Shown here one piece after another: positions 13,071 to 33,172 of a stretch of 54,763 nt of DNA. Each line of letters starts with the position of its first letter. The stretch's first letter is position 1. A program made the translations under genes and the position numbers. Where the stretch lies: the IMG/VR virus record IMGVR_UViG_3300028394_000094, positions 1 through 54,763 of that record; one strand, given 5' to 3'. The DNA comes from a virus. Taxonomy: Duplodnaviria; Caudoviricetes. The notes beneath the pieces were generated by a model that did not search any database, was not told where the DNA came from, and saw nothing but the letters and a program-made list of their open reading frames with translations.

Positions 13071-13084
13071 TTTTACTATTAACA

Positions 13085-13107: not shown

Positions 13108-13122
13108 CCTTTGGAGAGAGAA

Positions 13123-15424: not shown

Positions 15425-15439
15425 GAAAGCGAGTGAGAA

Positions 15440-15797: not shown

Positions 15798-15806
15798 GAA
15801 AAGTAA

Positions 15807-16177: not shown

Positions 16178-18006
16178 TGGATTTAATAACTTATGATTTT
16201 GAAACATACTATGCGAAAGACTACGGTTTTAAAACGCATACGACAGAAGAGTATGTGCGTGACCAACGGTTTGAAGTTATCGGGGTTGCAGTCAAAGTAA
16301 ACGATGGGGAGACCGAGTGGGCTAGTGGTACATACGAAGAACTTAAAGTGTGGTTATCTAGATTCCGCTGGGGCAGCTCAATGGCACTAGCACACAATGC
16401 GATGTTTGACGGATTCATTCTGCACCATCATTTTGATATAAGACCGAAGATTCATCTTGATACTTTGTGCATGGCAAGAGCGTTGCATGGGGTTGAGGTT
16501 GGCGGTAGTCTCGGTGCGTTATCAGGTCGGTATAACATTGGCACAAAAGGAACTGAAGTAGAGAATGCTTTAGGGTTGCGTAGGGAAGATTTCCCCGAAG
16601 ACCAACTGAGTCGTTACGGTGATTACTGTATCAATGATGTGGAATTAACTTATCAGATATTTGATATTATGATGCGTAAGGGATTTCCTAAACCCGAACT
16701 AAAACTGATTGACTTAACTCTACGGATGTTTACTGAACCGAAACTAAAGTTAGACCTAGAGTTGTTAGAAAATCATTACCTAGATATTCGAGAGAAGAAA
16801 GAAAGCCTGTTGCTTGAGGCAGGTATTGAAGACAAAGCCGAGTTGATGAGTAACCCGAAGTTTGCCGAACTGCTAAAGAAACTTGGGGTTGAACCTCCGA
16901 TGAAGATTAGCCCGACTACAGGTAAAGAAACTCTAGCGTTGTCTAAGAACGATGAGGGATTTAAGGTATTAGCGGAACATCCTGACATAAGAGTGCAAAC
17001 CCTAGTCGCTGCCAGACTTGGGACTAAGAGTACGTTAGAAGAAACTAGGACAGAAAGATTTATTGGGATTGCCAAACGAGGGTTGATGCCAGTTCCTCTG
17101 AAGTATTATGCCGCCCATACAGGACGGTGGGGTGGTAGCGACCAACTGAACCTGCAGAATTTGCCGAGCCGAGGCGACAACGCAGGGAAGTTAAAAGCAT
17201 CAATCTGTGCGCCTGATGGGTATTACATTGTAGATGCGGATAGTTCACAGATTGAGGCAAGAGTTCTAGCATGGTTGGCAGGGCAGGACGATTTAGTTGA
17301 AGCATTTAGAAAGGGTGAAGATGTGTACAAAATCATGGCTTCGGCTATATATAACAAAGACGCAGAAGAAATTAGCAAAGAGGAACGCTTTGTCGGCAAG
17401 ACTACGATTCTCGGATGTGGCTACGGCATGGGCGCACCAAAATTCAAGGCACAACTCAAAACTTTCGGTGTGGAAATTTCGGAGGAACAAGCCCGTCATA
17501 TCGTCAGCGTTTACAGAACAACATACCCACAAATTACTCAGCTATGGAAACAGGCACAAGTTTCACTTGAAGCCTTACTAAAAGGTTCAACTACTGACTT
17601 AGGAAGAGATGATGTCTTAAAGCTTGATCCGGGAAGTAAGGGTATTGTATTACCCAATAAATTGTTAATGCGTTATGACGGACTCAAAGCATCCCGCAGC
17701 GAAAGTGGTATGCAATACACTTATAAGACTAGATATGGGGCGAACAAGATTTATGGCGGTAAGGTAATTGAGAATGTCTGCCAAGCAGTTGCTCGGTGCA
17801 TTATCGGTGAGCAGATGCTACGAGTAGCGAAAGAATACCCTATAGTCTTAACAGTACATGATGCGATAGCTTGTCTGGTCCCACAGGATAAAGTAGAAGA
17901 CGCTGTAAGATATATAGAGGAGTGTATGCGGTGGACACCAGAATGGTGTAGCGGACTGCCTGTTAATTGTGAGGTTGGTTATGGTAATAATTTGGGAGAG
18001 TGTTAG
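16177..18006 (+). CDS. polA: Family A DNA polymerase with 3'-5' exonuclease
   Basis: ExoI DFET, ExoII HNAMFD, ExoIII YCINDV; NLQNLP; motif A DSSQIEAR, motif B RFVGKTTILGCGYG, motif C TVHDAI. Confidence 0.95.
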   Translation: MDLITYDFETYYAKDYGFKTHTTEEYVRDQRFEVIGVAVKVNDGETEWASGTYEELKVWLSRFRWGSSMALAHNAMFDGFILHHHFDIRPKIHLDTLCMARALHGVEVGGSLGALSGRYNIGTKGTEVENALGLRREDFPEDQLSRYGDYCINDVELTYQIFDIMMRKGFPKPELKLIDLTLRMFTEPKLKLDLELLENHYLDIREKKESLLLEAGIEDKAELMSNPKFAELLKKLGVEPPMKISPTTGKETLALSKNDEGFKVLAEHPDIRVQTLVAARLGTKSTLEETRTERFIGIAKRGLMPVPLKYYAAHTGRWGGSDQLNLQNLPSRGDNAGKLKASICAPDGYYIVDADSSQIEARVLAWLAGQDDLVEAFRKGEDVYKIMASAIYNKDAEEISKEERFVGKTTILGCGYGMGAPKFKAQLKTFGVEISEEQARHIVSVYRTTYPQITQLWKQAQVSLEALLKGSTTDLGRDDVLKLDPGSKGIVLPNKLLMRYDGLKASRSESGMQYTYKTRYGANKIYGGKVIENVCQAVARCIIGEQMLRVAKEYPIVLTVHDAIACLVPQDKVEDAVRYIEECMRWTPEWCSGLPVNCEVGYGNNLGEC

Positions 18007-18674
18007 TGAGTAAGCCGATTTCATGGTCGTACTCAAGCATTAAGTTGTTTGACCAATGTCCTAAAAAGTATTACCACCTGCGTGTAGCCAAGGATGTTGT
18101 AGAACCTGAGACTGATGCAATGAACTACGGTACGCTATTCCATGAAGCGGCTGAACTATACATTAAAGACGGTACCCCCATCCCCCCACAATTTAACTTC
18201 GCAGTGGATGCTCTAAACAATTTAAAGAATTTAGAAGGGGAGAAGCATTGCGAGTTTATGATGGCATTAAACGAGAACCTAGAACCCTGCGACTTTAAAA
18301 GCCCCGATGTATGGTGGCGAGGCATAGCCGATTTGATTGTGATTAAGGGTGACGAGGCTAGGTGCTTAGATTATAAAACAGGGAAATCTGCAAAATATGC
18401 AGATAAAGGGCAGTTAGAACTGATGGCTTTGGCAATCTTTAAGTACTTTCCCTATGTCAAAAAGGTTAAAGCTGGGTTATTATTTGTAGTAGCGAGAGCG
18501 TTTATTAAGGATTCCTATTCTATAGAGAATGAGAGTAAACTATGGGGTAAATGGATAGCCGAACATAATAGGCTGAAGATTGCGTTCAAGACTGATGTTT
18601 GGAATCCTAGACCGAGTGGGCTTTGCAAGAAACATTGCTCAGTCCTAGAGTGCGCTCATAATGGGAGAAATTAA
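18006..18674 (+). CDS. Cas4/RecB-like PD-(D/E)XK exonuclease
   Basis: SYSSIK...CP; GT.FH; ADL...DYKTGK; QL..MA; C-terminal C...C....C completing a 4-Cys set; start GTG 18006 or 18000. Confidence 0.85.
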   Translation: MSKPISWSYSSIKLFDQCPKKYYHLRVAKDVVEPETDAMNYGTLFHEAAELYIKDGTPIPPQFNFAVDALNNLKNLEGEKHCEFMMALNENLEPCDFKSPDVWWRGIADLIVIKGDEARCLDYKTGKSAKYADKGQLELMALAIFKYFPYVKKVKAGLLFVVARAFIKDSYSIENESKLWGKWIAEHNRLKIAFKTDVWNPRPSGLCKKHCSVLECAHNGRN

Positions 18675-18986
18675 ATGCCGTATGTTAACAAGCCAAGACC
18701 GTATGCAAAAGAGTACCAACAACAAAAAGCTAGGGAAGAACACCCTCGCAGGATGGAACGTCAGAAGGCAAGAAGAGAATTAGACAAGAAGGGCAAGGAT
18801 TTAAACGGTAATGGTAAAGCGGATATGCGTGAAGGTAAGGATGTAGCACACCGCAAAGCCTTGGACAAAGGGGGTAGTAATAAAGATGGTGTTTATATCA
18901 CAACCCCTGCGAAAAACAGGTCGTTTAGACGAGATGCAAAAAGTAATTTAGTTTCAGAAACTAGTAAAAAAGAACGAAAAAAGTAG
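18675..18986 (+). CDS. Small HNH-like protein
   Basis: GKDVAHRKALDKGGSN...KNRS beta-beta-alpha-Me-like pattern. Confidence 0.6.
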   Translation: MPYVNKPRPYAKEYQQQKAREEHPRRMERQKARRELDKKGKDLNGNGKADMREGKDVAHRKALDKGGSNKDGVYITTPAKNRSFRRDAKSNLVSETSKKERKK

Positions 18987-19061
18987 TATAGTTATAGTTG
19001 TATTTTTAGTAGGGCAATGTGGACACCCACTTTGTCCTGATTAAGCATCACTGGAGAGAGA

Positions 19062-20600
19062 ATGCGAATTGTAGAGAACAAGGTTTTGGTTCTTAATTTA
19101 AAGAACCCGAACAAAGTAACGAGCATCATACCGAAGAGTAGAGTGCTGGGTACAGGTGAAGTTGCAGTTAACTGGGGATTAGAAGAAGCAAGGGTTTTAA
19201 ACAATCTTCAAATAAAAAACATCTCATCACCAATTGTAGGACAGTACGATTGGCCCGGGCTTCACAAACCGTTTGACCATCAAAAGGTTACGTCATCGTT
19301 TCTAACCCTACACCCTAGGGCATTTTGTTTGAACGAACAAGGCACAGGGAAGACCGGTTCGGTCATTTGGGCAGCGGATTACCTAATGAAGATTGGGAAA
19401 ATCAAACGGGTGTTAGTCATCTGCCCCCTATCTATTATGGATTCGGCTTGGCGAGCCGATTTGTTTAAGTTTGCCATGCACCGTAATGTAGATATTGCCT
19501 ATGGTTCTAGAGAGAAGAGAGAAGCAATTATCAATGGAGTAGCGGAATTTGTAATCATTAACTACGATGGGGTAGAGATTGTATCCGATGCGATATTTAA
19601 TGGTGGCTTTGACTTAATTGTTATTGACGAGGCTAACGCATACAAGAACGCACAGACTGCCCGATGGAAGACACTAAACAGGCTTTTGAAGCCCGATACT
19701 TGGTTGTGGATGCTAACAGGTACACCTGCCGCCCAAAGTCCTGTAGATGCGTATGGACTAGCTAAACTAGTAAACCCCAAGAATGTGCCGAAGTTCTTTA
19801 CATCTTTTAGAGAGATGGTAATGTATAAGATAACGCAGTTCCGGTGGATAAACCGCCCCAACGCTGACAAGATTGTGTTCGAGGCATTGCAACCTGCTAT
19901 CCGATTTACTAAGGAAGAGTGCCTAGACTTACCTGAGATGACCTATGTAATCAGGGATGTGGAACTTACTGCCCAACAGAAGAAGTATTATGAGCTTTTG
20001 CGTAAACAACTTGTGGTGCAAACATCAGGTGAACAGATTACGTCTGTTAACGCCGCAGTCGGTTTAAACAAACTCCTACAAATATCTTGTGGTGCGGTGT
20101 ACTCAGATAGCGGGCAGACTCTTACCTTTGACATTAAAAACAGATACAAGGTGCTGAAAGAGGTAGTCGAGGAGACTAAACAGAAAATATTGATATTTGT
20201 ACCGTTTAAGCACGTAATTCATATTTTACTAGAGCGACTGACTAATGATGGTTACACGGCTGAAGTTATTTCCGGTGAGGTATCAGCAAGTAAACGAACA
20301 GATATATTTGCAAGATTCCAACAGACTGCTGACCCAAAAATATTAATTATTCAACCACAAGCCGCAGCGCATGGAGTAACTTTAACTGCGGCTGATACCG
20401 TGATTTGGTGGGGTCCTGTACCGTCACTAGAAACCTATGCACAAGCAAATGCAAGGGTTCACAGGGCAGGGCAAAGACATCCTGTAACCATAATCAAGTT
20501 ACAAGGTTCTAATGCAGAAAAGCACATTTACAAAATGTTAGATAACAAAATAGACGATCACACAAAATTAGTTGATCTTTACAAGAATTTACTTGACTAA
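19062..20600 (+). CDS. SNF2-family SF2 helicase
   Basis: QGTGKT, DEAN, LTGTP, GVTLT, QANARVHRAGQ. Confidence 0.92.
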   Translation: MRIVENKVLVLNLKNPNKVTSIIPKSRVLGTGEVAVNWGLEEARVLNNLQIKNISSPIVGQYDWPGLHKPFDHQKVTSSFLTLHPRAFCLNEQGTGKTGSVIWAADYLMKIGKIKRVLVICPLSIMDSAWRADLFKFAMHRNVDIAYGSREKREAIINGVAEFVIINYDGVEIVSDAIFNGGFDLIVIDEANAYKNAQTARWKTLNRLLKPDTWLWMLTGTPAAQSPVDAYGLAKLVNPKNVPKFFTSFREMVMYKITQFRWINRPNADKIVFEALQPAIRFTKEECLDLPEMTYVIRDVELTAQQKKYYELLRKQLVVQTSGEQITSVNAAVGLNKLLQISCGAVYSDSGQTLTFDIKNRYKVLKEVVEETKQKILIFVPFKHVIHILLERLTNDGYTAEVISGEVSASKRTDIFARFQQTADPKILIIQPQAAAHGVTLTAADTVIWWGPVPSLETYAQANARVHRAGQRHPVTIIKLQGSNAEKHIYKMLDNKIDDHTKLVDLYKNLLD

Positions 20601-20621
20601 GTTAAAGTTTGATAGTATAGT
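20593..20621 (+). promoter_or_regulatory. Sigma70-type promoter for replication genes
   Basis: TTGACT-17bp-TATAGT; similar TAGTATAGTT also at ~18984 ahead of the helicase. Confidence 0.7.
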
Positions 20622-20644
20622 TGTAGTTTTAGAGGAGAGAGAAG

Positions 20645-21052
20645 ATGGAAAATGAAGGAGTATCAATAGAATCACTTACCCGTGTTTACATCAAGATGCG
20701 GACTAAGAAAGAAGAAATGAACAAGGAACTTGAAGCTAAAATATCTGAACTTGAGGAAAAGATGAGAACTGTAAAAACAGCGATTCTTGAACACATGAAG
20801 GATGTTGGTGCCGAAAGTATTAGAACAGAGTCGGGAACTGTATATCGCACAGTATTAACACGCTATACGACAAACGATTGGACTTCTATGCACAAGTTTA
20901 TCCTTGAACATGAGGTGCCTGATTTATTGGAGAAGCGGTTGCAACAAACCAATTTGAAGGCTTTTTTAGAAGAGAATCCGGACATAATACCCCCCGGACT
21001 TAACGCTAACAACGAGTATTCAGTTACAGTAAAAAGGAGTAAAAATGGTTGA
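20645..21052 (+). CDS. Conserved replication-module protein (N-terminal coiled coil)
   Basis: GGAGAGAGA RBS; SIRTESGTV...DW..MHKFI...LLEKR...PPGL. Confidence 0.75.
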   Translation: MENEGVSIESLTRVYIKMRTKKEEMNKELEAKISELEEKMRTVKTAILEHMKDVGAESIRTESGTVYRTVLTRYTTNDWTSMHKFILEHEVPDLLEKRLQQTNLKAFLEENPDIIPPGLNANNEYSVTVKRSKNG

Positions 21053-21311
21053 TGATGCTTATGTCCCCATTGAAAAAGTAGCCGAACACTTTGCGGTGTC
21101 AGTTTCTACCGTAAGGACTTGGATACGAAACGAGGACATACCTGCCTTGAAGTTAGGAGGAATCTATCGCTTTAAGTTGTCTGAAGTAGAAGCGAAACTT
21201 CGTAACACAGAGGTAAGTGTTCCCCAAGAAGTAGCAATAGCAGTAGAAAAAGCAGTAAAAGAGCCAGTACAACTGGAATTTGATTTTAGCAATCCTGACA
21301 AGGATATTTAA
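21045..21311 (+). CDS. Excisionase/MerR-like HTH DNA-binding protein
   Basis: IEKVAEHFAVSVSTVRTWIR...IPALKLGGIYRF. Confidence 0.85.
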   Translation: MVDDAYVPIEKVAEHFAVSVSTVRTWIRNEDIPALKLGGIYRFKLSEVEAKLRNTEVSVPQEVAIAVEKAVKEPVQLEFDFSNPDKDI

Positions 21312-21321
21312 GGAGAGAAGT

Positions 21322-22170
21322 ATGAGTGAGATGACTTTGTTTAAAGGTGGTTTACCTGCCTATTTAAAAGGTGAGATGGATGACGCTACCAACGCATTAG
21401 CGGGTGGTGATTTAGGTGCAAGACGTATTAGCATCAAGGGCGGTGTATTCCGTGAGTTTGTTGGTGGTAAGGAATACCGTGTATCAGAAGAGCGTTTTAT
21501 GAACGTAGTTATCGTCAAAGCCGCACCAAGTATTTCTCGGGTGTTCTATGCAGGTAGTTATGTTGAAGGCGAAGCTGTTGCCCCTGCTTGTTGGTCTGCT
21601 GATAATCAGCGTCCTGCACCGGAAGTAAAAGAGAAGCAAGCCGCCAACTGTCTAAGCTGCCCTAAAAATGTTAAAGGTTCTGGTCAAGGCGATGCTCGTG
21701 CTTGTAAGTATCAGCAACGGTTAGCATTAGTTATAGAGGGTGGGCAGGATGTGTATCAGTTAGTTCTACCTGCAACATCTGTATTCGGTGATGGCGAGAA
21801 GGGTAAGTTACCTTTGCAAGCATATGCACGGCATCTGAAAAACAATGGCACTCCGATTACAGGTGTCATTACTGAAATGCGGTTTGATACTTCAAGTCCT
21901 ACACCGAAGTTAACATTCAAGCCGATTCGTGTAGTTACTGAAGAAGAGTTTGAAGTAGTGAAACAGGCTAAAGATTCACAAGCCGCTTTATCGGCAGTTA
22001 TTTTAACCGTAGCACAGACTGATGGTGTTGGAGAGAAACCCAAAGCCCAGTTAGCCGCACCGAAAGAAGAAACTGAAATTGAGGAACCCAAGAAAGCCGT
22101 AGTTAAGAAGACAGCCGCTAAAGCTGAACCGGAATTAGCTGACTTAGTAGGCGAATGGGATGATGCTTAA
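21322..22170 (+). CDS. Putative ssDNA-binding protein
   Basis: AAGGAGAG RBS; located before primase; beta-rich core with Cys cluster and acidic aromatic tail (GEWDDA). Confidence 0.55.
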   Translation: MSEMTLFKGGLPAYLKGEMDDATNALAGGDLGARRISIKGGVFREFVGGKEYRVSEERFMNVVIVKAAPSISRVFYAGSYVEGEAVAPACWSADNQRPAPEVKEKQAANCLSCPKNVKGSGQGDARACKYQQRLALVIEGGQDVYQLVLPATSVFGDGEKGKLPLQAYARHLKNNGTPITGVITEMRFDTSSPTPKLTFKPIRVVTEEEFEVVKQAKDSQAALSAVILTVAQTDGVGEKPKAQLAAPKEETEIEEPKKAVVKKTAAKAEPELADLVGEWDDA

Positions 22171-22277: not shown

Positions 22278-25106
22278 ATGAACACACAATTATTTTTAGA
22301 AAAAATACTTGGGGACGAAGGATATTACTGCATTCTTGGACTAGCGCAGGATAAAGTAGTTCAAAAGTTTTATACCAAGCTTCAAGATGTTATTAAAGTG
22401 GCGGAGAATTTTAAGGAGAACGGATATGATGCGTACTACGCACTAGCTACATTTGAAGATGCCAAGTCGAGGATGGCAAGGAACGTAAAACAACTTAGGT
22501 CATTATTCCTAGATTTAGATTGTGGTGCGGAGAAACCTTATGCTAACCATGCAGAAGCATTAGTTGCACTGAGGAAGTTCTGTAAAGATATTAAGTTGCC
22601 CAAACCCACGATTGTTAATTCGGGTGGGGGTATACACGCATACTGGGCATTTACAGAACCTATATCTCGGGAAGAGTGGTTACCTGTTGCTAAGAAGTTT
22701 AAGAAGCTTTGTGACGAATGTGATTTACGGATTGATAGGGCTGTACCTGCCGATGCCGCTCGTATTTTAAGGATTCCGGGGACTTTGAACTTTAAGTTAG
22801 AGACTCCAAGAGATGTTAGCATTATTGGTGAACTAGCACAGAGTCTACCGTTTAGTTTCTTTAAAGGTATTATTGGTGAAGTAGTTGAGGCAGAAAAGAC
22901 TTATATACCCCGTGGTGAGATGGACGAAGTTACAAAATCTATTCTTGGTAACTTTACGAATAAATTTAAAACAATAATAGTAAAAACAATAGCAGGTGAA
23001 GGTTGCAAACAATTAGAGTATATTATTAAGAATCAAGCCACAATGAATGAGCCTATGTGGAGAGCAGGATTATCTATTGCCAAATTTTGTGTAGATGCTG
23101 ATACTGCCATGCACAAAATCTCTGCTGAGTACCCTGACTATACACCCGAAGGTACAGAAAAGAAGTTAATGGGTATCAAAGGAGGTCCTTATACTTGTGT
23201 GAAGTTTGAAGAGTATAACCCCGGAGGTTGTACGGGTTGCCCCAACAAGGGTAATGTTAAGTCTCCGATTGTTTTAGGTAGAGAAGTACAGGAAGCATCA
23301 GAGCAAGACAACATTGTTGAAGACACGGTATATGGTATTGACCAAGGGCATACACAGACTTATGTTATCCCTAAATATCCTGAGCCGTATTTTAGACCAA
23401 AGAATGGCGGTGTTTGTAAACGGATAATCAAGCAGGGAGATGAGATAGAGGTAATGATTTATCACAACGACTTGTATGTAACCCGTAGACTAATGGACTC
23501 CGACTTAGGTGAGGCAGCGGTTGTGCGGTTGCACTTACCAAAAGACGGTGTAAGAGAATATACAGTACCACTCTCGGCAATTACTTCTAAGGATGAGTTT
23601 AGAAAGCATATGTCCACCAAGGGTGTTGCCGTAATTAAAATGGACCAAATTATGAGTTATGTAAATACATGGGTTAATGAAATGCAATTTAAAGTTAAAG
23701 CAGATGTAGCACGGAGGCAGTTTGGTTGGACAGATAGCGAAAAATTTGAATCGTTTGTAGTTGGGGATAAAGAAGTTTATGCAGACCGTATAGACCATAA
23801 CCCCCCATCTATGGCTACGGCTAAGATGATTCGGGAAACCTTTATCTCCAAGGGTACGCTAGACGGTTGGAAAGAGACGATGGAGTTTTATAACAAGCCG
23901 AATATGGAGTTGCATCAGTTTGTTATCGGACTTGGTTTCGGCTCAATCTTTTCTGCGTTTACTTCTATTCATGGTGCGATACTGCACATTCATAGTAAGG
24001 AGACAGGGTTAGGTAAGACAACAGCAATGTTTGCAGCCGCTAGTATATGGGGGGACCCCGGGACTTTGGTGTTGAAAGAAAACGATACGGCTAACTCTAA
24101 ACTAAACCGTGTAGAACTACATAAAAATATACCTACGTTTGTAGACGAGGTTACAAACTCTATTCCTGTAGGGTTAAGTAATTTTGCATATAACTTTACT
24201 TCCGGCTCGCAACCTAATAGGATGTCTTCGGGTAGTAACCAAGAGCGTATTAGAGGGGCGAACTGGAAAACGACTTGTGTAACTACAGGTAATACAAGTA
24301 TGTTAGAACGAATTGCGGCATACAAGGCAATGCCGAAAGCAGAGGCGGCTCGAATATTAGAAGTAAAAGCCCACGAAGTTATTGGCTTATCTAAGGCAGA
24401 AGGGGATGAGTTTAGCGAGAAAATTAATAACAACTATGGTCACGCATATATACCGTTTCTACAATATGTAATGAATGACGTACCCGGGATAAGGGCGTTG
24501 TATAAGCAGACTCAACTTATTATAGATAAAAAGGCAGAGTTCAAGAACCCTGATAGGTTTCACTCCGTACTTATTACCAATGCGATTATGGGGTTGATGA
24601 TTGCTAAGAAGGTTGGATTAATAAGTTACGACATAAAGCCTGTACTTGCTTGGGCGCTGGGGAAGGTTAAAGAATCACAGACTACGCAGAACGAACTTGA
24701 TATAGATGCCGAGGGTATTCTGACTTCTTACTGGGCTGAGAACTATACCAATGTACTACGGATTAAAAGTACAGATGATGCACGGAATCCCACTTCCGGT
24801 GTAGACCATTTAGTTGTGCCTGACGGTTCACCAAGGGCTACCTTTGTAATGCGGTATGAATATGATATTAAGATGTTGTATCTATTTATGGCACCTTTAA
24901 AATCGTGGTGCGTTAAGCAACAGATAAACTATTCGGGATTTATTGAAGCACTCAAGAAGGGTAGAACGAAAGCAAAGATAGACAAGAAGCGTATGGGTAA
25001 GGGCACTAATAATAACTTACCATCACATAGCGTTTTGTTTGTAGATTGTATAGACTTTATGGAAGATGATGCAGAAATCCCCAAAATCAATAGCATTGAA
25101 ATTTGA
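22278..25106 (+). CDS. Primase-helicase: AEP/RepB-like primase, Cys-cluster domain, DUF927-type P-loop helicase
   Basis: FLDLD and SGGGIHAYW, RILRIPGT.N; C...YTC......GCTGCP; Walker A GLGKTT, VDE. Confidence 0.85.
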   Translation: MNTQLFLEKILGDEGYYCILGLAQDKVVQKFYTKLQDVIKVAENFKENGYDAYYALATFEDAKSRMARNVKQLRSLFLDLDCGAEKPYANHAEALVALRKFCKDIKLPKPTIVNSGGGIHAYWAFTEPISREEWLPVAKKFKKLCDECDLRIDRAVPADAARILRIPGTLNFKLETPRDVSIIGELAQSLPFSFFKGIIGEVVEAEKTYIPRGEMDEVTKSILGNFTNKFKTIIVKTIAGEGCKQLEYIIKNQATMNEPMWRAGLSIAKFCVDADTAMHKISAEYPDYTPEGTEKKLMGIKGGPYTCVKFEEYNPGGCTGCPNKGNVKSPIVLGREVQEASEQDNIVEDTVYGIDQGHTQTYVIPKYPEPYFRPKNGGVCKRIIKQGDEIEVMIYHNDLYVTRRLMDSDLGEAAVVRLHLPKDGVREYTVPLSAITSKDEFRKHMSTKGVAVIKMDQIMSYVNTWVNEMQFKVKADVARRQFGWTDSEKFESFVVGDKEVYADRIDHNPPSMATAKMIRETFISKGTLDGWKETMEFYNKPNMELHQFVIGLGFGSIFSAFTSIHGAILHIHSKETGLGKTTAMFAAASIWGDPGTLVLKENDTANSKLNRVELHKNIPTFVDEVTNSIPVGLSNFAYNFTSGSQPNRMSSGSNQERIRGANWKTTCVTTGNTSMLERIAAYKAMPKAEAARILEVKAHEVIGLSKAEGDEFSEKINNNYGHAYIPFLQYVMNDVPGIRALYKQTQLIIDKKAEFKNPDRFHSVLITNAIMGLMIAKKVGLISYDIKPVLAWALGKVKESQTTQNELDIDAEGILTSYWAENYTNVLRIKSTDDARNPTSGVDHLVVPDGSPRATFVMRYEYDIKMLYLFMAPLKSWCVKQQINYSGFIEALKKGRTKAKIDKKRMGKGTNNNLPSHSVLFVDCIDFMEDDAEIPKINSIEI

Positions 25107-25308
25107 CCAACTTAGTCCTGATGGAGTACGGATTGAGGTTGATTGGGACAAGTTTGTTGTAGGAACGTCTACATTTATACCTGCAATCAATCTTACAAAG
25201 TTAAACAAAGAGATGCAAGAAGTAGCAAGGCTTAAGCAAATACAGCTAAAAGGGTTTGACCGGATAGAAAATGGTAAATTGGGGATGCGGTTTTGGAGAG
25301 TTCTGTGA
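25066..25308 (+). CDS. Small hypothetical protein, last gene of replication operon
   Basis: Overlaps primase end; VDW...VG.S.FIP...GMRFWR. Confidence 0.7.
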   Translation: MMQKSPKSIALKFDQLSPDGVRIEVDWDKFVVGTSTFIPAINLTKLNKEMQEVARLKQIQLKGFDRIENGKLGMRFWRVL

Positions 25309-25314
25309 TATTAT
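25306..25314 (+). promoter_or_regulatory. Extended -10 promoter
   Basis: TG-A-TATTAT; predicted +1 near 25321, exactly at the start of the first hairpin. Confidence 0.55.
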
Positions 25315-25320
25315 GATTGC

Positions 25321-25392
25321 ACAATCACTCTCTCTCCGATTGTAAATGTAGTGCTCCTTCACTTTGCCCCCGCCCTTGCGGGGGATTTTTTT
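25321..25392 (+). ncRNA. Candidate anti-Shine-Dalgarno small RNA
   Basis: Three hairpins with pyrimidine loops ACUCUCUCUCC, CUCCUU and CCUU, the last being the terminator; loops complementary to phage RBSs. Confidence 0.65.
25367..25392 (+). terminator. Intrinsic terminator at the convergence point
   Basis: CCCCCGC-CCTT-GCGGGGG-ATTTTTTT. Confidence 0.85.
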
Positions 25393-28300
25393 AGTTGTAT
25401 GCGGCGATGTTATCTAGCATCTCTTGTTCTAACTTCTTACTGTATTGAACACCATTTACCATCCGTTTACTTGCGTCAAGGAATGCACGACTTGATCTTT
25501 CAAATGTTTCTGCATTAATACCAAGACCCGGATGTTTACGATTAAGTTCCATTAATTTTTCTTTAGCTTCTTCTCTAGCCTCAACATCGCCAACACGGTC
25601 AGAAATGTTATAGCGTTGTAACAGTTTATTTTTCTCATCAAGAATTGCTTTTTCAATACCTTTGTTTTTAGCATTGATTGCTTGTTGTAAAGACAACTCA
25701 GCGGGGGTAAACCCTAATGCTTGTGCACCTATACTAAAGATACTGAAATCTTCAATCATTGGGTCACCACGCATTGTCGTAGCGCCCTCGGTACCGTACC
25801 GGAAACTCTTCATAGCGTTACCTAAGAAAGACGGAAGTATATCTTCAATACCACGTTCTATATTGCCTTCTTGTATCTTGCTTAACCCACGCATAATTTT
25901 AGAACCCGCACCGTAAGCTGGTCCGCCAAAGGTTTGTAAGAACGCATCTTGGAATGTTGCAGATTGAGATGTTGGGTTTGTTCTAAATATTAAATCACTT
26001 AAACCAATACGTCCGGCAACATCTAATCCAGTAATTTCATTAATCAAACCTTTGTATACAAACTCACCAATATATTTACGGGTTGCAGTTTCAAAGTCAT
26101 CTTCGTCATCATCTGCAAACAAGTTGTATACCATAGCAGCCATACCAAACATTGGTACCCCTTGTAGTCCTGAGAACAACGCAGCGGTACCATATATACC
26201 AGCAATTTGTCGCATAGCAGCTTTCTTCACCTCTTTATCTTGGTTTTGCAAAGCATCTCTTGTAATTTTAAATAGTAAATAGTACATGGATACCCCGTAC
26301 CCTTTGTACATAAACAGCACCTTACCTAAAGCATTTTTAGAAATAAGCGGTGCGTTACCTGCGGCTATATTACCGTTTGTTAATTTAGCTACATCTACAG
26401 CGTATCTGGCGGCAGCGTCTTCAGCTGCTTGACCCTTAATACCTTTACCGTGTAATTTAGCTAACTGTAAATTATATGCAGCCATTAAAGATATTTCACG
26501 ATTCATACGGTCAGCGTGATGAAACGCCCAGCCGGAAGTAGTATTTATTGTGTTAAGAATATTTTTACGCCCGTCAACTTCAAGCACATCATAGAATGAG
26601 GAACGGTTTAACTGTCCTTCTCCCGCTGCCAAATCATACAAAGTTTTTAACCTTCTAATTTCGGCAGGTAATTTAGCATTGTCAAAGTCGTAATTGCTCA
26701 TAGACGGCATAGCTTTACCAGTAACTTTTTCTTTACTACCAATCATCTCTGCGGTTTTAGCATACCCACTAGCAAAAAATGCTCTTCTAGCCGCACCTAC
26801 TTCTTTTATTGTATCTGTCCAACTATGGTCTCCGGCTAGATATGGCATTACTACCATTGGCAACTGCGCTAACTGCACAACTGCCGAGGACACGTTAAAC
26901 CCTAATTGATAGTTAAAAGTAAGTGTGTTAACAAGGTTAGCTGTTTTTGTTATGATATTGTTATTGTTCGCACTATTTGCGGCAATATGCTTTTCAAATA
27001 TTTTTATGTATTCATTAACTAGTTTATTATCTTTAGCGTCAGTACCCTTAGTCATCGCTTTAGATAATGTCTTCATGTCCGACATTAACTTGTTAATCTT
27101 TGCACCGTATATCATCCTACCAACTTGTTGAGTTGTACTATACAACCGGTCCCGTAGCGCTTCTACAGCATCCTCTTTGTAACCTAACACGTTTTGACGT
27201 TTTCTAAATGACTGAGCAAAAGATGTTTCCGGCAACGTACTAATGTATAGACGCATTACTTCTTCGGAGTTTTCTTCGTATTTTTCTAACGCTGCTTTAT
27301 GTTTTTCTTTTTGATTAGCCGTAGCATTATCGGGTAGTTTAGGTTTGTTGCTCTCTAATACTTGCAACACTTTATTAACAAAACTTCCTGATGGCGCACG
27401 GGTATATTGATACTCAGCTAGTTTAGAAAACTGCTCAATGTTAGAAGCACCTTCTTTTTTAAGTTCTTCTATGGCTCTAGTGCGAGCACGTTCATATTCA
27501 AACGCTTCGATATAAGTTTCTACCTGCCCACTTTTATCTCTCATGTTATACGACAACCAGTAATTACCTTTACGAGTTAAGGCAAAGTAAGGCTCAATCT
27601 TACCTTGTGCAACTAATTTAGCCATAATATCGGATTTAATTTTTGCTTTAATAGTGTCGTCTACGCTAAAGGTTTCAATTCTTTCATTGATTGCCCTAAC
27701 AATTTCATTGTATGTAGCGCTGTAAGCATTACGCATATCAACATATAACTTCTTACCAGACCCACTTAATCTGTTGTACTCGGCTTTTACCTTGTTGTAA
27801 TTTGCATCCCAAGTTTTATCTTTTTGCGTAGCCTCTGGATAATCTGTTTTTTCTTTAGTTGGGTCGGCTTTGCTTGTTGTACTACCGTATACAACAGAAT
27901 TAAATAATTTAACCATCTCAGGAGTTGCTTGTTTAACCCACGCTTCAGCCCTACGAACTAGCGGTTCAATTTTTTCATTTTGTCCGTTAATATATTGAGA
28001 TTGCTCGTCAATTAATTTACCAATGCCTGTAGCACCTTTTAACCCAACCCGTTCAGCTTCCATACCCAGCACATTAACAGGCAGGGAAGAAAGGATTGCA
28101 GTTAGTGCGTTGCCGAATACACCTTTCTTAAGTACCTCATGTAATGCGTTTGCACGGTTCTGATTCATAAACGGTGCGTTAGCTATCTTATCTATAAACC
28201 CATCAAATATAGATTGAGCATCTTCACCTGTAACTCCCGGAACATTGGGTTTATTACGAAGCGTAGCTTGTTGTTTCTCTACAGTTTCTGTATTTTTTGA

Positions 28301-31300
28301 CGGTATTCCTCTAAAGACTTGCTTTGCTGCAACATCTTCAACCCTTGATTTAACATTCCTAGATACTGCGAGGGGGCGTTCTCTTTTATCCCCAGACTTA
28401 ACCATGTCTGAAGGTACGTCTCCAGTTGCGGTTTGCTGTGAGCCATCTGTAAACTGCTTTCCAATAGATCGTGCGTCATTTTTCTTAGCCTCTTTATTTA
28501 TAAATACAAATATATCTTCATTATCTTGAAAAGATTTTAACAATTTATTTTCAAGGGCGTTTAAATCAAATCCTTTTGTAGCTTTTAAACTAAGGATAAT
28601 TTTTTGCATTTCAGCCGGAAATGCTGCATCGTGGCTTCTTACTTTATGATGTGCAAGTTCGTGAATCATTGTTCCAAACGTACCATATGCCGCTCGTGTT
28701 ACATCTGAAAATTCTGGTAAAGCTGGGTTAACAAATAATCCAATAAATGGTATACGAATACTAACACCACGATATTCTTTATCAAAAGATATACCAATAC
28801 CTTCTTTTTTTAAATCTTTATAATTAAGATGTTTGGCAACAGCATCTCGTAAATCTTTAAATACATCTCCAATTTCGTACATAAATTTGTCAAATCTGTC
28901 GCCAAATTTATACCTTGCTATATCTGTAATACTTGAATAAACAGTTAACCCAAATCCATTTAATTCATCGTCAGCTTTGTCTCTTTTTTCACGTATAGCA
29001 TATTTTTCGTTTCTTAAATTTTCCCTAAGTTTTTCTTGCTCTTTAGATTCCCAATCATCTTTTTCATAAGTAGCATCTACTTGTTTGTCTAAAGCATCCA
29101 TTTCTTGTTGAAATTTATCAATATCAGCTTTTATTTCTGCTTTAGTTCTTTCTATAGGAATTTCAAGATTATCATGTAACATGACTTTATCATTTTTAAT
29201 AGTTGATTGGTCAACTTTTAAAGAATCCGTATCTATAAATACTGATTCTAAATCTTTTGTATTTAATTCCGGAATTTTTCTACCATTAACTATTAGTTGC
29301 CCGTTTTCAACTTTTACCTCATCTCCAAGATTTATTGCAGATGCTGCTGTTTTTTCAGGACCTTTGGGTTCTATTTTTTCTTTAGCGGTTACTTTTATTT
29401 TTGAACCAATCATAGATGGTTCTAAATATTGAACGTATCCAAAATCTAACGCATCGCTAGTAAAATCAATTTGTCTATATAAAACAGAAATATAATTAAA
29501 TATTTTTTCAAAATCTTCTTGCGCTACTTTAGAAAATGATTGCCTACTTAATTCAAAAGGATATCCGGGGTCTTCTGCTTTTACTTTTGGTACAACATCT
29601 ATATAAAATTCTCTGCCAATTGGGTCCGACAGATAATCCATTGGGTTAGTTTTTATTTTTGTACTAAATTGCCATAATCCGTTTGATAAAATATGTGTAT
29701 TATTACCATATTTCTTTTGTTGATTTTTAGTAACGTAAATTCTAGCGGTACCCCAATTAAAATTAGCATTAGCAAAAGTTGTGTATTCGTCTATATCAAA
29801 GTTTTTACCAATATTTAATATTTTATTATTAAATTTAACTTCAATATTATCAAACAACGGGCTATACATTAAAACTTTATGATAGTAAAGGTCTCCATCA
29901 AAATCAATTTTTGTTTCTTCTCCAGTAGAAGAATTTATATATGTTTCAGGAATTGTAATTCTTATGTGGGTACCATGCCCTTCAGGAAACATTTTTAAAT
30001 CTGCGGCGGTTGGTTTTTCTACGTTAATATCTGGAGCAAACGATGGGTCGTCTAAAGCTTCGTATAAAGTTTCCCCCGTAGTGTCAAGTACGCTAACTTT
30101 ATTATTTTTTAACGTAGTAACTTTTAATTCTTTATTAGCAAATAAAAATAACATTTTAGCAATACCCAAACTACCTGATGGTCTAGTAGTTCCTTTTTTT
30201 GTTCCCGCAATTTGTAAAAATTCTTTGCCAAGCACTGCTGCTTCCATACCTGTACCGTTGTCTAGAATAGTAATAGACCTATCAGACTCGTTCATAGTAA
30301 TAGATATTTCCCCGTTTGTTATATCGCCAAGTTCTAAACCTTCTTTAATTGCATCAAAAGAATTTTGAATTAATTCTTTTATAGATACAGTCGCTATATA
30401 ATCTGGGTTGCCATATAATTTTGGACCAATTAATTTAGCTAACCTTCCTACATTTACACCGGGAGTAGATTTTATTATTTGAAATAATTTATTGCTACGT
30501 ATATTATCTAATGCTTGGGTTGCATTTTTTACAGACTGTTCGTAAGATTCTCCCGACTCAAGTGCTTCAAGCATTCTTCCAACGTCCGCATCGGTTATTT
30601 CTCCAGCCTCGGCTAATTTAATAATTTCATTTTTAATCTTATCAAATTCACGTTTCCCGGTAATATCCTTTAATTCTGTTAACTGTTGTTTAAATTTAAA
30701 ATTTTCACGTTGAATTTCTAATTTTTGTTTAGGGTCTTTAATTGTTTCTAAATAGTCATTGTTATTTTTAATTTGTCGTTCTAACCCTTCAATAGTTTCT
30801 GGTGCTTTTACTACTTTTGGCTCTGCCTTTTCTTCCGTCTTTGGCTTTGGCTCGGCTAGTTTAGCCCTTTCTTCTGCTAATTCTTTTCTTGCTTTAGATA
30901 CATCTTTTCCTTTAGCTTCATCTTTATTAAGATTACGTTCAGCTTGTAAAAGGGCTTTCTCCATATCAGTTAATGGTTTTTTAACTGGCGGTTTTAATGC
31001 ACTCGACTGTACCGCTTCTCCTGCTCCAAGTCCTGTAGCAACATTCTCAAAAACACCCACTCCTGCAGGTTTAATTGGCGCAGGTCTTCCGGCAGCGGGT
31101 GCTGGTCTGTTAGGTACAGGAACGCTCTTTCCATTTGGTCTACTGACAGTTGCGGCGGGTTTAGTTCCACGGGGTGCCTCCGTTAAAGGTAAAGATTGTT
31201 GTTTTGCTAATTCAGTAAATGCTTGGTTCCGTAGAAATTCTATCGGTGCTTGATTCATTCTTGTATTCTGTCTAGCTGCAGTTAACACCTGACCAAGTTT

Positions 31301-33172
31301 TATCTGGTCATCTGGGTTAGCCATATCTAAACCAAGTAGTTGTTTGTAATATCCTGACTGTGGTTTGAGACCAGTGTTTTTTAATGTTTCTGCATCAAGC
31401 ACAGTACTAATTTGCGGTTGCTGATATGTTAAATCTTCTTGCAAACTTTGCGTTTGCCCTTGGCGAATACCTTCTGTACGGGAAGGACGACCACGCTCAC
31501 CAAACAAGTCAGACTGCTGTTGAGCTGCAGGAGCACCGTTAGCTGTTGGCGGTCTAAAAGTTTTTTGTTCCGGAAGCAATCCGGCAAGATTAAGTTGTTG
31601 TTGGGCTTGAGATTGCCGTGCAATTTTTTCTACTTGGGCTTGCTTCTCTTGTACGGCTTGTTGATGCGCTAAATTAATTTCACGTAGTTTCTGTGCCGCT
31701 TGTAATTGCTCAGAAATCTGAGTACTAGGCTTGGCTTCCGGCGCAGGAGGCGCAAACTGTAATACACCTTGACGAGAGTTTGCTATACGAGGGTCAGCTA
31801 CTTCACCACTTTCAACAGAATACATTTTATCGTTCTGTTGTTCTGCACGGGCTTGTTCATAAGCTTGTCTAGTTGCTTGTGCAGGGGGCATACCTTTACT
31901 AACAAACTCTTCAAATAACTCCCGTGTACGTTGTGCTAAAGGGTCAACTTCTTTTGGTGCAGCTTGAGGAGGCTTTTGCTCTAAGTTTTTATAAAACCCT
32001 AACAAGTCAGGCTGCTGAGTTTCAAATGCGCTTTTTTCCCCAGCTGGAGGTTGATTAATTTGTGCTGGTGGTTGTACTGGTGGCTGCTGGGCTTTCTGTG
32101 CTGCAATATTAGCTAGTCTATCGGCTTTAACTTGAGACGCTTCAACAGCTGCTCCCGGCGCACCAACAATACCACCGCCTATAGTACCTTTAAACATACT
32201 AGTAATAATACGGTCTATGTTCTCAGGCGAGAAAAATGGGTCTTTACTTCCAGCTAATTGACTGGCAAAAATTTGTAATGAATCTTGCGCACCTTCAGTT
32301 AACCCTTCTCCTAAAGCTGTTGTACCTAATGCTTTACCAAATTCTTTTTTCCAAGTAGTAGGAACTACGCTGGATTTTTTAAGCATCTCTTCAGCTAATT
32401 TGGCTTTGCCTGCAGAACCAAGCTGACTTAAAAGTTTTGAAGGTAGATATGTATCAAGAGCCGCAACTAAAGAACCTATAGTAAGTGCAAGGTCAGGTCT
32501 TAATTCTCCAGTATCTTCATAAATACCTTGAAGCGTATCAGGTATATTTATACCAGCAGAAGCTGCGCCGAGTCCAATTTTACCGCCCAACTCTTTAGCG
32601 GACTTCTCAGCCAATGCACCTGTAACTTGTTTATTTATAACTTCTCTAGCTGCAGATAACTCAATACCTTTTCTAGCAGCTAATTTTCCAGCTAAACCCT
32701 CAACAACTTCTGCCGTACCTCTTCTTGCAAGCGCACCTGCACCAAATGAACCTGTTAACAAACTAGCAACAAATGCCGCTACATCTGGACCAAGTTCACC
32801 TAAAGTCTCGGCTCCAGCACCAAGAAAATTACCAAAACTGTCTACTTGTTTATAAGATTTAAATGCAGTTGGATTAGCTTGTTCAGCTTTCTGCATCCGT
32901 TCTTTATACTCGTCTAATTGTTGTTTGGCATAATCATCAGCACCGATAATAGAACCGCCCAAAGCAGGGAGTAGGTCAAGTGCTGTACCTTTAAGTCCTT
33001 CTAAAGAACGCTGGAACCCACTAGAAACTAACGCACCCAAACCTTGTTCTCTGTAATCAACAGGGGCAACCGCATATCTATCTCGGATTGCCCGAGCACT
33101 AGCCATTACTTCTTCATTAGTGCCGTCAGGAACCTCAACAATTCCTACCCCATCAATTTGAACTCTAGCCAT
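25391..33172 (-). CDS. Giant (2593 aa) putative internal virion/ejection polyvalent protein with GHKL ATPase and HEXXH domains
   Basis: Last gene of the virion operon; Gly/Ala-rich N-terminus; ELIQNSFDA, ILDNGTGM, GSLGIAK, HGT (Bergerat fold boxes); MIHELAHH; long helical C-terminal region. Confidence 0.8.
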   Translation of the reverse strand: MARVQIDGVGIVEVPDGTNEEVMASARAIRDRYAVAPVDYREQGLGALVSSGFQRSLEGLKGTALDLLPALGGSIIGADDYAKQQLDEYKERMQKAEQANPTAFKSYKQVDSFGNFLGAGAETLGELGPDVAAFVASLLTGSFGAGALARRGTAEVVEGLAGKLAARKGIELSAAREVINKQVTGALAEKSAKELGGKIGLGAASAGINIPDTLQGIYEDTGELRPDLALTIGSLVAALDTYLPSKLLSQLGSAGKAKLAEEMLKKSSVVPTTWKKEFGKALGTTALGEGLTEGAQDSLQIFASQLAGSKDPFFSPENIDRIITSMFKGTIGGGIVGAPGAAVEASQVKADRLANIAAQKAQQPPVQPPAQINQPPAGEKSAFETQQPDLLGFYKNLEQKPPQAAPKEVDPLAQRTRELFEEFVSKGMPPAQATRQAYEQARAEQQNDKMYSVESGEVADPRIANSRQGVLQFAPPAPEAKPSTQISEQLQAAQKLREINLAHQQAVQEKQAQVEKIARQSQAQQQLNLAGLLPEQKTFRPPTANGAPAAQQQSDLFGERGRPSRTEGIRQGQTQSLQEDLTYQQPQISTVLDAETLKNTGLKPQSGYYKQLLGLDMANPDDQIKLGQVLTAARQNTRMNQAPIEFLRNQAFTELAKQQSLPLTEAPRGTKPAATVSRPNGKSVPVPNRPAPAAGRPAPIKPAGVGVFENVATGLGAGEAVQSSALKPPVKKPLTDMEKALLQAERNLNKDEAKGKDVSKARKELAEERAKLAEPKPKTEEKAEPKVVKAPETIEGLERQIKNNNDYLETIKDPKQKLEIQRENFKFKQQLTELKDITGKREFDKIKNEIIKLAEAGEITDADVGRMLEALESGESYEQSVKNATQALDNIRSNKLFQIIKSTPGVNVGRLAKLIGPKLYGNPDYIATVSIKELIQNSFDAIKEGLELGDITNGEISITMNESDRSITILDNGTGMEAAVLGKEFLQIAGTKKGTTRPSGSLGIAKMLFLFANKELKVTTLKNNKVSVLDTTGETLYEALDDPSFAPDINVEKPTAADLKMFPEGHGTHIRITIPETYINSSTGEETKIDFDGDLYYHKVLMYSPLFDNIEVKFNNKILNIGKNFDIDEYTTFANANFNWGTARIYVTKNQQKKYGNNTHILSNGLWQFSTKIKTNPMDYLSDPIGREFYIDVVPKVKAEDPGYPFELSRQSFSKVAQEDFEKIFNYISVLYRQIDFTSDALDFGYVQYLEPSMIGSKIKVTAKEKIEPKGPEKTAASAINLGDEVKVENGQLIVNGRKIPELNTKDLESVFIDTDSLKVDQSTIKNDKVMLHDNLEIPIERTKAEIKADIDKFQQEMDALDKQVDATYEKDDWESKEQEKLRENLRNEKYAIREKRDKADDELNGFGLTVYSSITDIARYKFGDRFDKFMYEIGDVFKDLRDAVAKHLNYKDLKKEGIGISFDKEYRGVSIRIPFIGLFVNPALPEFSDVTRAAYGTFGTMIHELAHHKVRSHDAAFPAEMQKIILSLKATKGFDLNALENKLLKSFQDNEDIFVFINKEAKKNDARSIGKQFTDGSQQTATGDVPSDMVKSGDKRERPLAVSRNVKSRVEDVAAKQVFRGIPSKNTETVEKQQATLRNKPNVPGVTGEDAQSIFDGFIDKIANAPFMNQNRANALHEVLKKGVFGNALTAILSSLPVNVLGMEAERVGLKGATGIGKLIDEQSQYINGQNEKIEPLVRRAEAWVKQATPEMVKLFNSVVYGSTTSKADPTKEKTDYPEATQKDKTWDANYNKVKAEYNRLSGSGKKLYVDMRNAYSATYNEIVRAINERIETFSVDDTIKAKIKSDIMAKLVAQGKIEPYFALTRKGNYWLSYNMRDKSGQVETYIEAFEYERARTRAIEELKKEGASNIEQFSKLAEYQYTRAPSGSFVNKVLQVLESNKPKLPDNATANQKEKHKAALEKYEENSEEVMRLYISTLPETSFAQSFRKRQNVLGYKEDAVEALRDRLYSTTQQVGRMIYGAKINKLMSDMKTLSKAMTKGTDAKDNKLVNEYIKIFEKHIAANSANNNNIITKTANLVNTLTFNYQLGFNVSSAVVQLAQLPMVVMPYLAGDHSWTDTIKEVGAARRAFFASGYAKTAEMIGSKEKVTGKAMPSMSNYDFDNAKLPAEIRRLKTLYDLAAGEGQLNRSSFYDVLEVDGRKNILNTINTTSGWAFHHADRMNREISLMAAYNLQLAKLHGKGIKGQAAEDAAARYAVDVAKLTNGNIAAGNAPLISKNALGKVLFMYKGYGVSMYYLLFKITRDALQNQDKEVKKAAMRQIAGIYGTAALFSGLQGVPMFGMAAMVYNLFADDDEDDFETATRKYIGEFVYKGLINEITGLDVAGRIGLSDLIFRTNPTSQSATFQDAFLQTFGGPAYGAGSKIMRGLSKIQEGNIERGIEDILPSFLGNAMKSFRYGTEGATTMRGDPMIEDFSIFSIGAQALGFTPAELSLQQAINAKNKGIEKAILDEKNKLLQRYNISDRVGDVEAREEAKEKLMELNRKHPGLGINAETFERSSRAFLDASKRMVNGVQYSKKLEQEMLDNIAAYN

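Follow-up and report, generated by a model that had tools for sequence, protein, structure and literature searches.

The element between two convergent genes

The 54,763-bp viral contig IMGVR_UViG_3300028394_000094, analysed here over its full length as the window (87% complete by the record's own estimate), carries an early and replication operon on its + strand. The last gene of this operon is a conserved small open reading frame (ORF) of 80 amino acids (aa; 25066-25308, +) that ends in ...GKLGMRFWRVL*. It converges on a giant late gene of 2593 aa (25391-33172, -), annotated in relatives as 'DarB-like antirestriction / PLxRFG', and the gap between the two genes spans 25309-25390. The subject of this work is an element at 25304-25392 (+), flanked by the stop codons of the two genes. 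Our in silico analysis establishes the element, its fold, its conservation and a complementarity to ribosome-binding sites (RBSs) that is specific for the early strand and co-varies among relatives. A selected, RNA-level element with RBS complementarity very probably exists at this position.

The element opens with a promoter-like block, TGTGATATTAT (25304-25314, +), in which the TGA stop codon of the 80-aa ORF (25306-25308) is embedded in an extended -10-like TGaTATTAT. This block is either promoter or processing-site context. RNAfold of 25321-25392 returns exactly three hairpins (-20.8 kcal/mol, z = -3.96; none of 200 shuffles was equally stable), just as an earlier, preliminary description of the locus had drawn them. 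The 5' hairpin, H1, has its stems at 25321-25326 and 25338-25343 (+) and presents an 11-nucleotide (nt) loop, ACUCUCUCUCC (25327-25337). This loop, seed 1, is complementary to the RBS sequence GGAGAGAGA. H2, with stems at 25350-25353 and 25360-25363 (+) and the loop CUCCUU in the RNAfold structure, overlaps seed 2, UGUAGUGCUCCUU (25347-25359, +), within the region 25347-25363. A MAFFT alignment placed the CUCC of seed 2 with the UUCUCC motif found family-wide. The third hairpin is the intrinsic terminator, a helix at 25367-25384 (+) with seven G-C pairs and a CCUU loop, followed by the U-tract AUUUUUUU up to 25392. The helix was independently picked up by a terminator scan on the + strand, and the U-tract overlaps the stop codon of the giant gene. 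On the - strand, no T-run lies 3' of the hairpin in the window sequence.

Strain-level material touches the same positions. Contigs of the sequencing runs X1, X2 and X4 (25255-25374) show many flanking differences from the window; among the differences listed, 25304-25392 contains just one, a C>T change at 25375 in the terminator loop. As 15 further differences exist beyond those listed, this hint at constraint on the element rests on the listed ones and is only suggestive. In a near-identical strain (L002:5202-5288, -), the (CU)n run of the H1 loop is one unit shorter than in the window (25327-25337), which suggests slippage.

Complementarity to early ribosome-binding sites

The sequence GGAGAGAGA occurs five times in the window when both strands are counted, against 0.13 expected, and none of 100 shuffles reached five. 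Four copies lie on the + strand, where each is an early-gene RBS directly 5' of an ATG (12666, 13123, 19062 and 20645), in agreement with the preliminary description; the fifth is on the - strand and coincides with the H1 loop, whose complement it is. The first predicted target site (12656-12664, +) precedes an ORF of 134 aa and unknown function (12666-13070) and the second (13113-13121, +) an ORF of 182 aa (13123-13671; phrog_2693, function unknown). The third (19053-19061, +) belongs to an SNF2-family helicase gene (19062-20600), whose orthologous RBS follows the seed in relatives. The fourth (20634-20642, +) serves a 135-aa ORF (20645-21052) resembling DUF7307/Pam3 gp33 below threshold. A shorter version, GGAGAGA, at 21312-21318 (+) had also been proposed as an RBS and indeed stands before the ATG at 21322 of a 282-aa ORF (21322-22170; phrog_27714, function unknown); this 7-mer also occurs once within a gene, at 22030.

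Seed 2 has predicted targets of its own. The sequence AAGGAGTATTAC occurs twice (5685 and 6610; 0.01 expected), 5' of the ATGs at 5698 and 6624, which upholds the earlier claim of seed-2 pairing at these two sites. The first site (5685-5696, +) belongs to a 293-aa, DUF3150-like protein (sub-threshold). The second, in the longer form AAGGAGTATTACA (6610-6622, +), belongs to an AAA ATPase (phrog_1297). The pairing claimed for 20653-20663 was likewise recovered: this stretch, TGAAGGAGTAT, pairs with GUGCUCCUUCA using two G-U pairs. As to sequence, the preliminary description is thus accurate in all its details. Among the gene labels of the preliminary description, SNF2 helicase, AAA ATPase and, below threshold, DUF3150-like stand. 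The labels winged helix-turn-helix (12666) and single-stranded-DNA-binding protein (21322) do not, as these genes have no Pfam match and their PHROG hits are of unknown function.

Cofolding energies over the 73 start regions of the window point in the same direction. All of the best nine belong to early genes on the + strand, and six of the seven RBSs named beforehand are among them: the helicase ranks first, the AAA ATPase fourth, 21322 fifth, the DUF3150-like gene sixth and 13123 seventh, with 12666 in 13th place.

Two RBS dialects are apparent in this phage. The + strand starts from 5698 to 21322 use GGAG-type sites with purine-rich spacers (GGAGAGAGA, AAGGAGUAUUAC), and the late starts on the - strand from 33175 to 54233 have mostly AGGA or UAAGGA(A/U)A-type RBSs, such as AGGAUA.

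Conservation and covariation among relatives

We fetched 75 viral loci via the C-terminus of the giant protein (31-100% amino-acid identity). A regular-expression search found the same order in 73 of them: the end of the small ORF (...R.WR..*), a hairpin, a CU-rich stretch and a terminator. The common plan comprises a stop codon within TGT(G/A)A(T/C)A, a hairpin 6-9 nt further on, a C/U-rich stretch that is mostly UUCUCC and a G+C-rich terminator with a T-run. A covariance model, R1, built from 22 distant-clade sequences only, with the window left out, finds 25304-25392 (+) of the window at 32 bits (E 1.3e-4). In 73 of the 76 sources, window included, it gives a single match, located where expected; L015, L019 and L073 are missed. 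In 761 kb of other viral DNA sharing a 14-mer with the element, R1 matched at 3 of 80 loci; these 80 were listed among at least 118 matching stretches in a scan of viral contigs, and such 14-mer matches are mostly due to chance. The element always lies directly 3' of the small ORF. In two relatives (L052 and L069), other DNA has been inserted between the element and the giant gene and the element remains with the small ORF, so it travels with the latter and not with the giant gene.

The fold is conserved. In an alignment covering the outer stem of H1 and the terminator (A2), 94.7% of positions are paired and eight pairs are changed on both sides, which none of 500 shuffles matched; the terminator helix is 98.3% paired, with compensatory changes. 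Because the register of H1 shifts between clades, RNAalifold on the MAFFT alignment returned the terminator only, and H1 was supplied by hand for these pairing statistics. The H1 stems are wholly different among clades (ACAAUC/GAUUGU, GCAAC/GUUGC, GUGACC/GGUCAC and GACAGG/CCUGUC). Nonetheless, 48 of the 49 unique variants of the element have a 5' hairpin starting within 8 nt, and 43 expose an unpaired CU-rich 4-mer. Across 35 sequences (alignment A1), the CTC of UUCUCC is invariant, as are T3, A5 and A7 (T..A.A around the stop codon). The UUCUCC motif and the promoter-like block are thus kept while the flanking sequence is not.

Some relatives depart from the common plan in length. In four (L023, L025, L045 and L067; for example, L023:5218-5327, -), the interval from the seed to the T-run contains one more hairpin, CUACUAUAUGUAG, and a terminator that is longer and differs from the usual one, which gives RNAs of about 90-100 nt. 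Two short forms (L019:5214-5278, - and L020:5229-5293, -) measure 65 nt from the stop codon and lack the 5' hairpin, consisting of promoter-like block, CU-rich stretch and terminator only.

The 49 variants also bear on the - strand copy of the RBS motif, which might serve as RBS for a small gene running antisense to the 80-aa ORF. Our crude gene caller picked such ORFs in two genomes (G001, 89 aa; G009, 78 aa), and the window itself has a 30-aa ORF starting with TTG at 25232-25324. Against this, a - strand ORF that starts 3-11 nt after an SD-like (Shine-Dalgarno-like) 4-mer reaches 60 aa or more in only 6 of the 49 variants, 20 have none of any length and the median length is 11 aa; the conserved ORF is the + strand one. 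We rejected this explanation, whose likelihood is close to nil.

To follow seeds and targets together, ten relatives' whole records were oriented, their genes crudely called and the RNA extracted from each, giving a set of 11 genomes (G000-G010). All 11 RNAs fold alike, into a 5' hairpin, a CU-rich single strand or loop and a terminator. The CU-rich seed differs by clade, and in the ten relatives the early-gene RBSs of each clade bear the matching extension. One clade, for instance, pairs the seed AUGUUGUUCUCCAUU with the RBS AAUGGAGAACAACAUG. The distant clade has a conserved AUGUUGUUCUCC(AUU), which is exactly complementary to (AAU)GGAGAACAACAU. G008 combines the seed CUUCGUUUCUCCUUG with the early RBSs CAAGGAGAAACGAAG and AAGGAAACGAAG; G007 combines ACGUUCUCCUAGU with ACUAGGAGAACA, G005 CGUUUCUCCAUUG with CAAUGGAGAA and G010 ACUCUCCUGUU with AACAGGAGAGU. 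The corresponding seeds in the window are UCUCUCUCC and UGUAGUGCUCCUU, which face the early RBSs GGAGAGAGA and AAGGAGUAUUACA.

The position of the matching sites is that of RBSs. On the sense strand of the RNA, GGAGAACAA occurs six, four and four times in three relatives, and 6/6, 3/4 and 3/4 of these copies are RBSs, located 6-8 nt 5' of an ATG (in one case, a GTG) that starts an ORF of 129-511 aa. On the other strand, the sole copy in two of the three records is the element itself. A DNA-level motif, such as a duplex-binding or recombination site placed before early genes and once inverted at the operon end, would have to be reconciled with this regularity. By inference only, a motif recognised in the duplex can take either orientation. 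We regard such a motif as very unlikely, because the sequence is always found at SD distance, with GGAG 6-8 nt 5' of the start in 12 of 14 sites, and because its counterpart is embedded in a conserved hairpin-terminator RNA with compensatory stem changes.

Own-seed matches concentrate on the early strand. Early start regions that match the own seed of their genome over at least 8 contiguous nt number 5/35, 8/32, 7/35, 10/27, 2/29, 6/42, 2/35, 3/12, 8/24, 2/22 and 3/23 in G000 to G010. Late-strand start regions have none in 10 of the 11 genomes; the exception, G001, has three, among which is a false ORF overlapping the element. Early start regions take up 0.8% of the sequence space and contain 40 of the 184 exact 9-nt complement sites counted genome-wide. 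When the RNAs were permuted among genomes, the own pairs scored 103.8 against 84.5 +/- 3.4, and none of 100000 permutations scored as high (P<1e-5); with nine non-redundant genomes the values were 82.0 and 66.4 +/- 2.8. The covariation of loop and RBS that the preliminary description had proposed as a check is therefore observed.

Orthologous genes reveal which start regions follow the seed. Orthologues of 20645, the gene after the helicase, keep an own-seed match of at least 8 nt in eight of nine genomes while the matching sequence changes, and those of 21322 do so in 6 of 10. Helicase orthologues match in 5 of 11, several start calls there being too short. The neighbouring primase matches in only 1 of 11 genomes, and no match of this kind was found in any of the 11 for the 21045 group, the 88-aa gene or the nuclease.

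These comparisons allow us to weigh an ordinary 3' untranslated region (UTR), in which hairpins and terminator would merely stabilize the operon end and the match of a C/U-rich stretch to purine-rich SD sequences would be incidental. The element does sit where a normal operon terminator sits, the signal is weak or absent in G006 and G009, and RNAduplex energies are unexceptional genome-wide. Set against this, in 9 of 11 genomes composition-preserving shuffles of the seed match less well than the real one (P<=0.01), and in the permutation test a genome's own seed outperforms the CU-rich seeds of other genomes. The matches extend 4-8 nt past the SD core and are gene-specific among orthologues, and the conservation of UUCUCC and the promoter-like block stands out from the flanks. 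An ordinary 3' UTR with an incidental match is, in our estimate, improbable.

The same covariation bears on whether host mRNAs are the main targets of a real RNA, serving take-over of the cell, with the match to phage RBSs being secondary or even protective or stabilizing. Some recently described phage small RNAs (sRNAs) are reported to act on host functions (10.1101/2024.10.31.621285, PMC13502914, PMC12197685), and CU-rich seeds can pair with any strong SD. However, the seed changes in step with the RBS flanks of the phage between clades, which would need a parallel change in the hosts. We consider it unlikely that the host is the principal addressee.

The neighbouring genes offer few clues of their own. 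The small protein (about 75-80 aa, with homologues in L002-L076) has nine invariant residues among 25 aligned homologues, including PDG, W, S.F, E and G.R.WR. An AlphaFold2 model of the 80-aa protein has a beta-alpha-beta-beta fold (predicted local distance difference test score, 82.9). It has no fold match in the PDB (best E 0.46; best E of a PDB sequence search, 0.48), no Pfam or PHROG family, and no match in a tblastn search of the phage collection. The protein could be a partner of the RNA. The giant protein has its nearest cultured relatives in phages of Pseudomonas, Erwinia, Klebsiella, Serratia, Sinorhizobium, Agrobacterium, Vibrio, Ochrobactrum and Microcystis, with 24-33% identity over the C-terminus; its alignment against 185,579 reference genomes gave no relative. 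In the three cultured distant relatives that were examined, only the giant gene is held in common with the window, and a lysis cassette follows it in place of the element. A DNA search of the phage collection with 24000-27000 of the window gave no match, nor did R1 in Skulduggery and PEp14. In Klebsiella phage SopranoGao, R1 has two weak matches (22.9 and 18.4 bits), which we read as plain terminators and set aside. The stronger one (L117:971-1043, -; 22.9 bits) lies 3' of a spanin gene and includes, besides a stop codon and a terminator, a box resembling TATAGT and a stretch containing C and U; it could be either a terminator of unrelated origin or a very distant relative of the element.

Predicted mode of action and known systems

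Taken together, the data lead us to assign a probability of about 0.6 to 25321-25392 specifying a + strand, base-pairing anti-RBS repressor RNA at the end of the early operon. The core idea of the preliminary description, a small RNA whose C/U-rich seeds are complementary to the phage's own early and replication RBS variants, is supported by conservation in 73 of 76 sources, by covariation between clades and by early-strand specificity. We infer the discreteness of the + RNA, its repressive rather than stabilizing or activating effect and its role in timing. The predicted product would be a regulatory RNA of about 70 nt that begins with a hairpin, exposes one or two C/U-rich seeds and ends in an intrinsic terminator. 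Its source would be either transcription from the extended -10-like motif that overlaps the last ORF's stop codon or release from the 3' UTR of the operon by processing. The seeds would pair with the extended SD of chosen early genes of the same phage, a set that includes the SNF2 helicase gene and the two that follow it as well as the AAA ATPase and DUF3150-like genes. Pairing would take in the SD together with 4-8 nt of flank and, in relatives, would reach as far as the AU of the start codon. At 9-13 bp, the predicted seed duplex is much longer than the 4-5 bp of SD/16S pairing and should therefore block binding of the 30S subunit. Being encoded at the distal end of the operon and transcribed last, the RNA should build up with a delay, which would give feedback shut-off of its target genes. 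Late genes, having other RBS types, would escape. This reading would also account for an RBS and spacer that are identical in several genes of one phage.

Several results weigh against this repressor RNA. Its promoter is the first. The window has a good extended -10, TGaTATTAT, which the preliminary description had used to place the transcription start near 25321, and that motif is indeed present. However, the extended form TGnTAnnnT is found in only 19 of the 49 unique variants, a TAnnnT after the stop codon in 25, and 13 fit neither -10 register; a sigma-70 scan that required a -35 box gave no promoter at the element. An own promoter is thus doubtful and, given how few variants have a canonical -10, processing from the 3' UTR is as likely. 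Expression is the second: a search of sequencing runs for the stretch found no RNA run containing it. Four runs of one study contain about one-third of the sampled words as assembled contigs, their RNA or DNA kind not being recorded. A third group concerns the statistics of the targets. The gene starts come from a crude caller that favours SD-like starts, and the relatedness of the genomes makes the P values overstate their independence. Three genomes have a weak signal: G006 (P 0.058), G009 (P 0.138) and G004 (2/29). In a naive genome-wide RNAduplex scan of the window, only two of the named RBSs were in the top 25, where the preliminary description expected them to rank top. That scan does not discriminate, because long gapped duplexes with G-rich coding sites dominate it, and exact-complement counts were used in its place. 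In the near-identical strain L002, the RBSs of the helicase and 135-aa genes are unchanged despite the loop being one CU shorter, so one repeat unit is not critical.

The remaining difficulties concern the strand. The body of the window element outside the terminator folds better on the - strand (-5.4 kcal/mol on + versus -9.0 kcal/mol on -), a preference shared by L002, L003, L008, L009, L011 and L013. A wobble test on the flanks of the matches is flat, with 99 of the G-U type against 109 of the A-C type and hence no excess. Complementarity alone therefore cannot separate a + strand anti-RBS RNA from a - strand RBS look-alike. The latter could act as part of a late transcript of the giant gene, antisense to the element if transcription continues through the hairpin. 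It would present an RBS look-alike without a start codon (for example, GGAGAACAACAUC) that titrates a RegA/RegB-like protein or the 30S subunit, or it would neutralize the + RNA as a perfect antisense. Identity on the - strand explains the covariation equally well, and the hairpin without a T-run on that strand makes read-through plausible. In T4, early mRNAs carry an extended GGAG motif for a protein, RegB (PMC3014915). Nevertheless, the + strand gives the more stable fold of the body outside the terminator in 36 of the 49 variants, with 65 versus 38 G-U pairs. In every relative, the element lies within the transcription unit of the + strand operon, 5' of its terminator. The Rfam look-alikes of the window above 15 bits, all sub-threshold, are without exception + strand terminated sRNAs. 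No RegA/RegB-like gene was identified, although no search was aimed at one. On balance, a - strand RNA is an unlikely acting molecule.

If the + strand repressor RNA is taken as the basis, a broader proposal can be made tentatively, and we hold it at slightly less than even odds. The clade of uncultured tailed phages of about 55-65 kb would possess a private translational code, in which a clade-specific SD extension of selected early and replication genes and a matching anti-code RNA of about 70 nt co-evolve, with at least five distinct pairs observed here. Lytic timing is known mainly from transcription and from protein factors such as T4 RegA and RegB. An sRNA family that addresses its own early-gene regulon through an evolvable RBS extension would, if real, be a post-transcriptional timer. 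In the literature surveyed, phage sRNAs mostly target host genes or a single antisense target. A search of open-access papers and preprints, together with the review PMC12197685, turned up no phage sRNA family that addresses its own early regulon via co-evolving RBS extensions. Should the proposal hold, related phages could be mutually orthogonal or exclusive in co-infection, like P1/P7 with c4, and the clade would provide a natural set of orthogonal RBS/sRNA pairs. The natural covariation predicts which compensatory mutants should work, and the clade-specific pairs would be ready-made orthogonal translational repressors for synthetic biology.

Like terminated, trans-acting base-pairing sRNAs in general, the element has a 3' intrinsic terminator and a conserved, accessible seed with above-chance complementarity. 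It resembles the short, terminated, CU-rich anti-SD sRNAs of bacteria (RF02278, mmgR RF00519, SorX and PsrR1), which expose C/U-rich motifs like the 16S anti-SD and give the best sub-threshold Rfam scores. Cuckoo/CcsR are further CU-rich anti-SD bacterial sRNAs. In contrast to the element, these sRNAs are chromosomal and act on host regulons. Rfam 15 gave no match at the gathering threshold for the whole window on both strands. Sub-threshold scores against gathering scores were 33.7 versus 50 bits for the Betaproteobacteria toxic sRNA RF02278, 26.1 versus 41 for mmgR, 26.1 versus 46.6 for SorX and 25.7 versus 42 for PsrR1. The best score for RF02278 comes from L127, the relative G008, the window having 15.4 bits. 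PsrR1 (RF02701) is not listed at E<=1 in any of the ten relatives. As the best family varies from relative to relative, the likeness is one of kind and not of descent. Rfam C4 is absent among the 18 matches with E up to 10 (25280-25400).

The match to cyanobacterial PsrR1 (window 25310-25389, +) has the same two-motif layout, UCUCC...AUUG...CUCCU. The gene at 20645 is weakly like the cyanophage Pam3 family DUF7307 (26.1 versus 27 bits). Together with the one distant cultured relative that infects Microcystis, these similarities give no more than a faint hint that the host may be a cyanobacterium.

Among phages, c4 of P1/P7 is the closest precedent; in mechanism, it is OppZ/CarZ of Vibrio cholerae. 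The c4 RNA is a processed leader RNA, in contrast to the terminated sRNA predicted here. As described in a review (PMC12197685), c4 resembles the proposed RNA in being a phage RNA within the transcription unit of its target, with loops that pair with the target's RBS region, and in that loop and target differ between related phages, as in P1/P7 heteroimmunity. RBS-complementary loops that co-vary between related phages are also what we find, in silico only. Unlike c4, which controls one operon (ant) and the immunity of a temperate phage, the RNA proposed here would address a set of early and replication genes.

OppZ and CarZ are 3'-UTR-derived, autoregulatory sRNAs that inhibit translation within their own operon, according to Hoyos et al. 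2020 (PMC7398697). The likeness lies in an sRNA at the 3' end of an operon that shares the operon's terminator, pairs with start regions inside the operon (a prediction in our case) and gives negative feedback. The element has the equivalent location: in the operon with the genes that it matches, it follows the last stop codon and precedes the terminator. In contrast to OppZ/CarZ, it is phage-borne, has 5-10 predicted targets per genome through a common RBS extension and maybe has its own promoter; there is no sequence relation.

The third comparison is with T4. There, two proteins act on early mRNAs, the translational repressor RegA and the endoribonuclease RegB. According to a review (PMC3014915), RegB has the consensus GGAGRAYARAA and inactivates early mRNAs at their start regions, whereas most middle and all late mRNAs escape. 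Early mRNAs would thus be marked by an extended SD motif in both systems; the reader of the mark is a protein in T4 and would be an RNA here. With an RNA as reader, paired mutations can let the specificity drift, and the clade-specific seeds point to this. If this is correct, the element would do for the switch from early to late gene expression, with RNA only, what RegB and RegA do in T4.

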